From a virus (lineage: Duplodnaviria > Caudoviricetes), in IMG/VR virus record IMGVR_UViG_3300050500_000423, positions 23,622 to 87,621 of that record: a stretch of DNA of 64,000 bases. One strand, 5' to 3'. The notes under the pieces are model-generated. The model saw only the letters and a program-made list of their open reading frames with translations, made no database searches and was not told the origin of the DNA. The position numbers and the translations under genes were made by a program. Position 1 is the first letter of the stretch. Every line of letters begins with the position of its first letter. Shown here piece after piece: positions 62,413 to 63,083 of the stretch.

Positions 62413-63083
62413 CGCCCTGCACGTTCGACGCCGCGAAGTACGCCGTCGAGCACTGGCACTACTCGAAGTCGATGCCAGCGGGGAAGCTCGTCAAGTACGG
62501 CGTCTGGGAGCACGGGGCGTTCGTCGGGGTGATCATCTTCTCTCGGGGAGCGTCCCCGCGGATGGGTCTCCGGATGGAACGCCGCTACGGTCTCGCCGTT
62601 ACGCAGTGGTGCGAGCTCACGCGGGTCGCGATGACCTCGCACGAGGTGCCGGTTACTCAGGCACTCGCCGCGGCGATCCGACTTCTCCGAGACGACAACC
62701 CCGGGTTGCGGCTCCTGCTGTCCTACGCCGATCCCGGGCAGGGACACCGCGGCGCGATCTACCAGGCCGGGAACTGGCTGTTCACGGGTCGAGTTGTCGC
62801 GAAGGTCGACTACTGGTGGCAGGGTCGATGGCGGCACGATCGCGTCGTGAAGGAAGCGTTCCCGCCGGAGGTCTACCGGAAGTTCCCGACGCGTGAGTCC
62901 GGCGGGAAGTTCCGGTACCTGTTCCCGCTCGACAAGGGCATGCGCCGAGTCGTCGCGAGGGAGGCGCTACCGTACCCGCCACCACTTGCGGGCGAGGGCT
63001 CCACGGTGAGCCACCGGGCTTCCGGCTCGGAAGGACGGGTTCGACCCCCGTCGCCCGCTCCAAGCGACGCTACGGTCACCTGA
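62388..63083 (+). CDS. mom: Mom-like DNA adenine hypermodification enzyme (GNAT)
   Basis: AKYAVEHWHYSKSMP, GVWE...GVIIF, ELTRV, LSYADPGQGHRGAIYQAGNW; start GTG 62388 or TTG 62376. Confidence 0.85.
   Translation: MDPGDLLVAPCTFDAAKYAVEHWHYSKSMPAGKLVKYGVWEHGAFVGVIIFSRGASPRMGLRMERRYGLAVTQWCELTRVAMTSHEVPVTQALAAAIRLLRDDNPGLRLLLSYADPGQGHRGAIYQAGNWLFTGRVVAKVDYWWQGRWRHDRVVKEAFPPEVYRKFPTRESGGKFRYLFPLDKGMRRVVAREALPYPPPLAGEGSTVSHRASGSEGRVRPPSPAPSDATVT
62988..63062 (+). tRNA. tRNA-Gly(TCC)-like cloverleaf embedded in the mom coding sequence
   Basis: GCGGGCG/CGCCCGC acceptor, U73, CCA; D stem GGCT/AGCC; anticodon arm CCGGG-CTTCCGG-CTCGG; T arm ACGGG-TTCGACC-CCCGT. Confidence 0.8.

Follow-up and report, generated by a model that had tools for sequence, protein, structure and literature searches.

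The window analysed here, a 64,000-nucleotide stretch of DNA, is the final 64 kb of a complete 87,621-bp phage genome from IMG/VR (record IMGVR_UViG_3300050500_000423; 127-bp terminal repeats, ~68% G+C), and it contains a tRNA-Gly gene that is embedded in the 3' end of the gene for the DNA modification enzyme Mom. We propose that this 75-nt element probably encodes a dedicated glycyl donor for Mom. This is the best reading of the locus because Mom of phage Mu has been shown to use Gly-tRNA-Gly as the source of the glycine that it attaches to adenine N6 in double-stranded DNA (Silva et al. 2026, PMC13219725; preprint 2023). The use of Gly-tRNA-Gly by Mu Mom had been stated correctly in the original prediction, which was made from the sequence of the window. 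With Mu Mom, all three Escherichia coli tRNA-Gly isoacceptors work, and Gly-tRNA-Ala does not (PMC13219725). The comparative analysis described below strongly indicates that this type of RNA is tied to Mom genes in both directions and that the element family travels with Mom; the window copy belongs to this family by its position. The enzyme gene and the embedded tRNA gene comprise the following features:

62376..63083, + strand: open reading frame (ORF) of Mom, 235 aa plus the TGA stop codon (ORF list, Pfam PF25680, PHROG 1384, PDB 8bv8).
62403..62978, + strand: catalytic (GNAT-type) domain of Mom, residues 10-201 (Pfam match, tblastn).
62979..63080, + strand: 34-codon C-terminal tail of the Mom ORF, beyond the Pfam domain, reading through the tRNA.
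62988..63062, + strand: tRNA-Gly(UCC), 75 nt, with the anticodon at 63021-63023 and the encoded CCA at 63060-63062 (ARAGORN, Rfam).

A single tRNA, tRNA-Gly (tcc), was identified by ARAGORN in the window, at 62988-63062 on the + strand, and it is also the sole tRNA of the whole 87,621-bp genome. Rfam RF00005 concurs, with a match at 62988-63059 that covers the full length of the model (1-71) and, at 37.6 bits, exceeds the gathering score of 29 (E 8e-6). The two methods thus agree on the tRNA-Gly(TCC) that had been placed in the 3' end of mom, and the details given for it, namely, G1-C72, C2-G71, G3-C70, U73, the encoded CCA and the deviations A8, C14, G37/G38 and A49-U65, are all seen in the Rfam alignment. 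The determinants recognized by bacterial glycyl-tRNA synthetase (GlyRS), that is, G1-C72, C2-G71, U73, C35 and C36 (PMC10464925), are without exception present in the window copy. The tRNA starts 9 nt past residue 201, the end of the Mom domain, at codon 205, and the Mom stop codon lies 21 nt after the tRNA; the 75 nt correspond to 25 in-frame Mom codons, which read AGEGSTVSHRASGSEGRVRPPSPAP. The acceptor stem is a plain 7-bp helix that is internal to a polycistronic unit, in which the next ORF begins 21 nt farther on. Except for A49 in place of G49, the acceptor stem and the T arm match those of ordinary actinobacterial tRNA-Gly genes; the D and anticodon arms differ from them. In the T stem, the A49-U65 pair is weak, but it is followed by C50-G64 and G51-C63; likewise, A8 and C14 stand in place of the U8-A14 pair, while G18G19 and UUC are present.

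The ORF that encloses the tRNA is, by all indications, a genuine Mom gene. The identity originally assigned to it is borne out by the matches to the Pfam Mom family PF25680 (E 2.5e-42, 145.3 bits against a cut-off of 27.1; residues 10-201 on profile positions 2-201 of 202) and to PHROG 1384 (E 3.9e-46), and the window Mom also matches the structure of Mu Mom (PDB 8bv8, E 6.8e-7). The residues compared were R111 and S124, which are essential in Mu Mom, and also D149. The equivalents of R111 and D149 are present in the window Mom and invariant in a 10-sequence alignment, in which the position of S124 is occupied by Thr in the window Mom and by Ser or Thr in the others; R151 of Mu aligns with Gly. 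The start codon is uncertain, with TTG at 62376 and GTG at 62388 as the candidates. At the other end, the tblastn matches to the window Mom stop at query residue 201 in all relatives.

We then examined 80 viral (IMG/VR) and 10 bacterial-genome loci that had been fetched by the Mom domain alone. ARAGORN calls a tRNA beside Mom in only ~12 of these loci, always of the glycine type and 5-14 nt past the end of the Mom domain. Reading of the raw sequences, however, reveals a tRNA-like element at the Mom 3' end in nearly all of them. A covariance model (R1), which was built from 65 unique element copies, including the window sequence, locates the element immediately 3' of the Mom domain in 79 of the 80 viral loci and in 9 of the 10 bacterial-genome loci, none of which was used for the model. 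The genomic loci with the element come from 8 phyla, namely, Pseudomonadota, Acidobacteriota, Planctomycetota, Bacillota, Thermodesulfobacteriota, Verrucomicrobiota, Ignavibacteriota and Omnitrophota. These counts, together with strong covariation and a varying reading phase (see below), are the outcome of the check on the 3' ends of mom homologs that had been suggested at the outset. The gap between the Mom domain and the element is 1-19 nt in the relatives, compared with 9 nt in the window. Besides tandem or terminal-repeat copies of the element, R1 has no further matches at E < 0.01 in 544 kb. Because the same arrangement recurs in ~90 independent Mom loci, chance does not account for it, and the tRNA-Gly gene of the window can be taken as real.

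In a quick tree of Mom proteins, all element carriers fall into one clade (Shimodaira-Hasegawa-like approximate likelihood ratio test, SH-aLRT, 99); the canonical and derived labels placed on this tree are crude and support no inference on which form is ancestral. The element was not found at Mom of Mu, nor at Mom of Proteus, Salmonella, Geobacillus, Staphylococcus, Bacillus and Methylophilales phages. Among the cultured phages that carry the element, Arthrobacter phages Martha (L003:3068-3141) and Sicarius2 (L004:3071-3144) have it overlapping the Mom stop codon, with R1 scores of 52 and 57 bits, respectively. No tRNA is annotated in the GenBank records of these two phages, and ARAGORN finds the element in Sicarius2 and not in Martha. 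Salinibacter phage B2_17, in which R1 detects the element as well, carries it as an annotated tRNA-Gly, which is located 33 nt after a Mom-like coding sequence (L096:1555-2058); the similarity of this sequence to other Moms ends near residue 142, as it would after a frameshift or a sequencing error. In the group of Microbacterium phage Appa (NC_047972, L002:3128-3202), a canonical tRNA-Gly(CCC) with A8 is encoded on the strand opposite mom, just past a hairpin-plus-T-run terminator, an arrangement that preserves the linkage to mom and precludes co-transcription. Two loci contain tandem elements within one Mom ORF tail (L070:1373-1441 and 1448-1517; L094:970-1038 and 1045-1108). A further viral contig, of 2,277 bp, has an element at both ends (L021:19-92 and 2175-2248), for which a terminal repeat or a circular assembly is a more probable cause than the presence of two genes.

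The link also holds when the search starts from the RNA. Of 80 loci fetched by a DNA motif of the T arm and acceptor alone, 73 encode a Mom homolog on the same strand, and in 72 of these it is no more than 400 nt away: Mom is immediately upstream of the element (gap <=60 nt) in 39 loci, immediately downstream (<=60 nt) in 17, and separated by 61-400 nt in 16. Among the remaining 7 loci, 4 have a Pfam Mom ORF adjoining the element, which brings the number of loci with Mom to at least 77 of 80; the last 3 include ones that are too short or too near a contig end to assess. In ~22 of the 80 loci, the element is upstream of Mom.

The element is constrained as an RNA, not as a protein, because the Mom frame passes over it in any of the three phases or else ends ahead of it or within it. 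Across 72 distinct loci, the Mom frame over the element is in phase 0, 1 and 2 in 12, 46 and 14 cases, respectively, and the Mom stop codon precedes the element in 2 loci, falls within it in 8 and follows it in 61. In a structure-blind MAFFT alignment of 65 element variants, 84.6% of the cloverleaf cells are paired, compared with 39-45% in slid controls, and the covariation score is 0.463, compared with 0.06-0.12; neither value was attained in any of 500 shuffles. Pairing is complete (100%) in the acceptor stem, where positions 4-7 show four types of pair. The counts of G.U and A.C combinations for the transcribed strand (46 vs 25) are only mildly supportive. The tail peptide differs between lineages and seems to be dispensable, and the 34-codon tail of the window Mom is probably incidental as protein. 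Conservation of the tail at the protein level was considered and rejected, given the three reading phases and the loci in which the element is untranslated. The Mom frame in use is open across the element in 86% of cases, compared with 43-48% for the other two frames, an excess that may reflect mild selection or shared ancestry.

The same data bear on the possibility that the tRNA is a remnant of a phage attachment site (attP) that carries part of a host tRNA gene, or else a chance cloverleaf in a GC-rich coding sequence. Many temperate phages integrate into tRNA genes, and in one motif-selected locus (L164:1627-2592), a tyrosine integrase gene directly follows a Mom ORF that spans the element. 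The tRNA of the window, however, is full length, matches Rfam well (see above), belongs to a set with compensatory changes over more than 60 variants, and recurs in the same position and orientation relative to Mom; no integrase adjoins it in the window, and a sample of 201 actinomycete genomes yielded no near-identical host tRNA. Over its full length, the closest sequence in these genomes is 76% identical, and only the generic 3' 27 nt match, so an origin as an attP remnant or host tRNA copy was rejected; the window tRNA evidently is not a recent copy of a host gene. Two of the 201 genomes, G007 and G024, are unpublished; they yielded weak partial matches only, and no claim is built on them. 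Taken together, an attachment-site or chance origin is hardly credible.

The pattern of conservation among 76 unique element sequences suggests molecules that need to be charged with glycine but not to decode. No variation is seen at G1, C2, G71, C72 and C35; 75 of the 76 sequences have U73, essentially all have C36, and CCA is encoded in ~60% of the members. The features required for decoding drift. U33 is retained in only 26 of the 76 sequences, the anticodon loop is shortened to 6 nt in 12, and position 34 of the anticodon is A in 32, U in 26 and C in 18, but never G. GCC, however, is a common bacterial glycine anticodon, and A34 is otherwise rare in bacterial tRNAs. The body of the molecule is altered as well: A8 replaces U8 in 66 of the 76 sequences, the T loop has UGC in 51, the same change as in the staphylococcal non-proteogenic tRNA-Gly, a G50.A64 mismatch occurs in 68, and an extra C follows the T stem, before the acceptor stem, in 72. 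The region that determines the affinity for elongation factor Tu (EF-Tu) includes both the mismatch and the extra C (PMC7826273). The window copy belongs to a more canonical minority of 8 of the 76; it has A8, but its T stem is regular, the extra C is absent, and position 55 is U.

Altered anticodon loops could also evade a nuclease, and it could be argued that the element serves as a decoy, or as a spare tRNA, against a host defence that cleaves or depletes tRNA-Gly, with no relation to Mom chemistry. Phage tRNAs that resist host anticodon nucleases are known in general. This explanation would, however, leave without a cause both the near-exclusive two-way linkage to Mom and the constant glycine type, which is that of the Mom co-substrate, and we consider it very unlikely.

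The original prediction went further and described the donor as dedicated and ribosome-avoiding. The glycyl-donor part is backed by the linkage to Mom and the conserved GlyRS determinants; ribosome avoidance is not evident for the window copy, which keeps U33, the 7-nt anticodon loop and G18G19 and has a regular T stem with UUCGA in its loop, A49-U65, A8/C14 and G37/G38 being the only deviations. For most members of the family, which combine the absence of U33 with G55 in the T loop, the G50.A64 mismatch and the extra C after the T stem, exclusion of the RNA from the ribosome is plausible.

Several observations weigh against a dedicated donor in the window. With the canonical traits just listed, the window copy looks largely fit for translation, and a decoding role is possible because GGA (14%) and GGG (30%) together account for 45% of the phage glycine codons, counted in phage genes only. 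The minimum-free-energy fold of the unmodified sequence is an extended hairpin, not a cloverleaf (z = -1.88), although single-sequence folding is uninformative for a GC-rich tRNA. The R1 score of the window tRNA is 62.7 bits, but the window sequence was in the training set, and R1 gives ordinary actinobacterial tRNA-Gly genes 50-57 bits; therefore, the window copy is assigned to the family by where it lies and by A8/C14 rather than by its score, and R1 was abandoned as a membership test for this copy. Three members of the element-bearing Mom clade, L041, phiEf11 and an Amycolatopsis locus, are without the element. Finally, host tRNAs suffice for Mom of Mu, a phage without a mom-linked tRNA, so that a private carrier is not needed for the chemistry.

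The straightforward alternative is an ordinary phage tRNA-Gly(UCC) that translates GGA and GGG codons and is found beside mom only through genome compaction. The canonical U33, 7-nt anticodon loop, G18G19 and UUCGA, as well as the glycine codon usage, are compatible with this explanation, as is a tRNA-Gly-like sequence, 76% identical to the window tRNA, that lies beside a tRNA array in an actinomycete genome. However, the tRNA is the only one in 87.6 kb, and ~90 other Mom loci, from many phyla, have their element at the place that it occupies here, 9 nt past the Mom domain. The family combines a drifting wobble base and the loss of U33 with fixed C35 and C36, which is unexpected for decoders, and in the window copy itself, A8/C14 replace the near-universal U8-A14 pair. 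We therefore regard a purely translational tRNA as unlikely; given the 45% of GGA and GGG codons, a translational role, alone or in addition to the donor role, is possible. The actinomycete sequence mentioned above (L234:1501-1574, contig C32 of genome G077) has A8 and is located just upstream of 14 ordinary tRNA genes; it was not called by ARAGORN, and no Mom domain was found in genome G077.

Another alternative hinges on the organization of the locus, where the following features flank mom:

61852..62412, + strand: ParB-like gene (186 aa), directly 5' of mom and overlapping the mom start (PHROG 620 ParB-like partition protein, E 3e-22).
63083..63433, + strand: downstream ORF, 116 aa, with its ATG overlapping the Mom TGA (TGATG, window 63081-63085).
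63423..63439, + strand: weak terminator-like hairpin 3' of the 116-aa ORF (1 site against a shuffle mean of 0.6, which is weak evidence).

An annotated ParB-Mom pair is likewise present in phages Appa, Martha, Sicarius2 and phiEf11. The 116-aa ORF has no family match in Pfam, NCBIfam or PHROG, and mom and the tRNA have neither a promoter-like nor a terminator-like site between them. A TGATG overlap is typical of translational coupling, and ribosomes completing mom would need to unfold the tRNA region. The overlap of mom with the 116-aa ORF suggests that ribosomes do cross this region.

With such an arrangement, the element could be an uncharged tRNA-like structure that acts in cis, either as an RNase P signal that punctuates or destabilizes the mom message or as an operator that is bound by Mom and regulates its own or the downstream gene. 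It is embedded in the Mom ORF in 61 of the 72 distinct loci, the Mom stop codon of the window overlaps the start codon of the next gene, and the frame in use is preferentially open, as noted above; furthermore, in most loci, RNase P cleavage at G1 would produce a mom message that lacks its stop codon. However, a signal or an operator needs no C35, C36 or U73, nor the CCA found in part of the family, although conservation is highest at these positions. Elements are furthermore seen upstream of Mom, past the Mom stop codon, in tandem pairs and, in Appa, on the opposite strand behind a terminator. Overlap with the ORF is thus not a conserved requirement, considering that the stop codon precedes or falls inside the element in some loci and that the element can be upstream of Mom or on the other strand. 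The tandem copies in the Mom tail are easier to explain by an RNA product than by a regulatory hairpin. On balance, a purely cis-acting structure seems improbable, and autoregulation of mom by excision of the tRNA, which was part of the original prediction, is speculation.

If the RNA is a glycyl donor for Mom, as we favor, the tRNA-Gly-type gene would be co-transcribed with mom within a parB-mom-orf116 message, and host tRNA-processing enzymes would free the RNA from the mom transcript, with RNase P cutting at G1 and 3' trimming proceeding to the encoded CCA. Host GlyRS would then glycylate the RNA through G1-C72, C2-G71, U73, C35 and C36, and Mom would transfer the glycine from the RNA to N6 of adenine in phage DNA. 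The product would rearrange to N6-carbamoylmethyl-adenine, and the phage DNA would be shielded from restriction. Because the carrier is encoded with the enzyme, Mom would have a carrier supply of its own, independent of the translation pool. A broader scenario, which we consider equally apt to prove right or wrong, is that a clade of Mom enzymes co-evolved with private, translation-unfit glycyl carriers located in or against their own genes, such that one transcript gives rise to both the enzyme and its activated co-substrate, and the competition between RNase P and translation on the same RNA sets the ratio of enzyme to carrier. Under this scenario, the near-canonical copy in the window would represent an early or a re-captured stage.

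The window Mom resembles Mu Mom in that it belongs to the same family, PF25680, with the equivalents of R111 and D149, and in the type of co-substrate, a glycyl-tRNA-Gly that is recognized mainly at the acceptor end. Unlike the window, where the enzyme gene contains a tRNA-Gly gene, Mu uses host tRNAs, has no linked tRNA, and places translation of its enzyme under Com. The paper on Mu Mom does not mention mom-linked tRNA genes (PMC13219725). The element of the window is, like ordinary phage tRNAs, a phage tRNA gene that is found by standard tRNA finders; unlike them, it is single, of glycine type, and fixed by or in one enzyme gene over many phyla, in a family with a drifting wobble base and with U33 and U8 lost. 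Viral tRNA mimics on coding RNA that are aminoacylated by host synthetases are represented by the 3' tRNA-like structures of plant RNA viruses, such as turnip yellow mosaic virus and brome mosaic virus. These, however, are located at the 3' terminus of an RNA genome, have a pseudoknotted acceptor arm, and play a role in replication or translation, whereas the element of the window is a plain internal cloverleaf in the message of a DNA phage, and its amino acid is presumably consumed by an enzyme.

The closest functional parallel comes from Staphylococcus aureus and S. epidermidis, where the non-proteogenic (NP) tRNA-Gly species NP1-NP3 are donors for FmhB, FemA and FemB (PMC7826273). These also are extra tRNA-Gly species that are charged by GlyRS and dedicated to a tRNA-dependent aminoacyl transferase. 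They have UGC or UGU instead of UUC in the T loop, and T-stem pairs that are weak for EF-Tu binding (A49-U65, U50-A64, A51-U63), so that the original statement on weakened T-stem determinants in these tRNAs was accurate (PMC7826273). Most of the Mom-linked family shares UGC, and the window copy shares A49-U65. The latter does not have the complete staphylococcal set, combining A49-U65 with C50-G64, G51-C63 and UUC, and lies outside that lineage. By analogy, the window tRNA may work like the NP tRNAs. The differences are that NP1-NP3 form a separate, staphylococcus-only lineage, are encoded by chromosomal genes outside the enzyme gene, and serve an acceptor that is a peptidoglycan precursor, not DNA. 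Accordingly, the pairing of a non-proteogenic-type tRNA-Gly with a tRNA-dependent transferase is known, and what would be new here, and is partly supported, is that the tRNA is phage-borne, nested in the gene of the enzyme, and serves DNA modification.

In our literature search, the only published description found of a tRNA-Gly-like locus in mom is that of McMurdie et al. (2011), who reported a 76-bp tRNA-Gly-like 'pseudo-tRNA' inside a mom homolog in the ssrA genomic islands of Dehalococcoides and proposed no function for it (PMC3146451). No paper was found that ties a mom-embedded RNA to the co-substrate of Mom. The two cases have in common a tRNA-Gly-like cloverleaf in a mom homolog that adjoins a ParB-domain gene. 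The Dehalococcoides element, described before the tRNA dependence of Mom was known, occurs in the islands of one bacterial lineage and near the 5' end of the annotated gene; the one in the window, in contrast, is more canonical and lies at the 3' end of the gene in a phage of actinobacterial type.

If the proposed function is correct, this would be the first virus-encoded tRNA-type molecule that feeds a DNA-modifying enzyme instead of the ribosome, with the gene of the carrier nested in the gene of the enzyme. Non-proteogenic tRNAs, so far confined to staphylococcal cell-wall synthesis, would then extend to phage DNA hypermodification in many bacterial phyla, and there would be an explanation for the 'pseudo-tRNA' that, since 2011, has been flagged or else overlooked by annotation pipelines. 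The element would further provide a simple genomic marker for Gly-tRNA-dependent Mom enzymes, and its family a natural set of RNAs, probably charged and yet unused in translation, for the study of recognition by GlyRS, EF-Tu and Mom. The tyrosine integrase gene in locus L164 and the integrative islands described in the 2011 paper indicate, moreover, that the arrangement is not limited to lytic phages.

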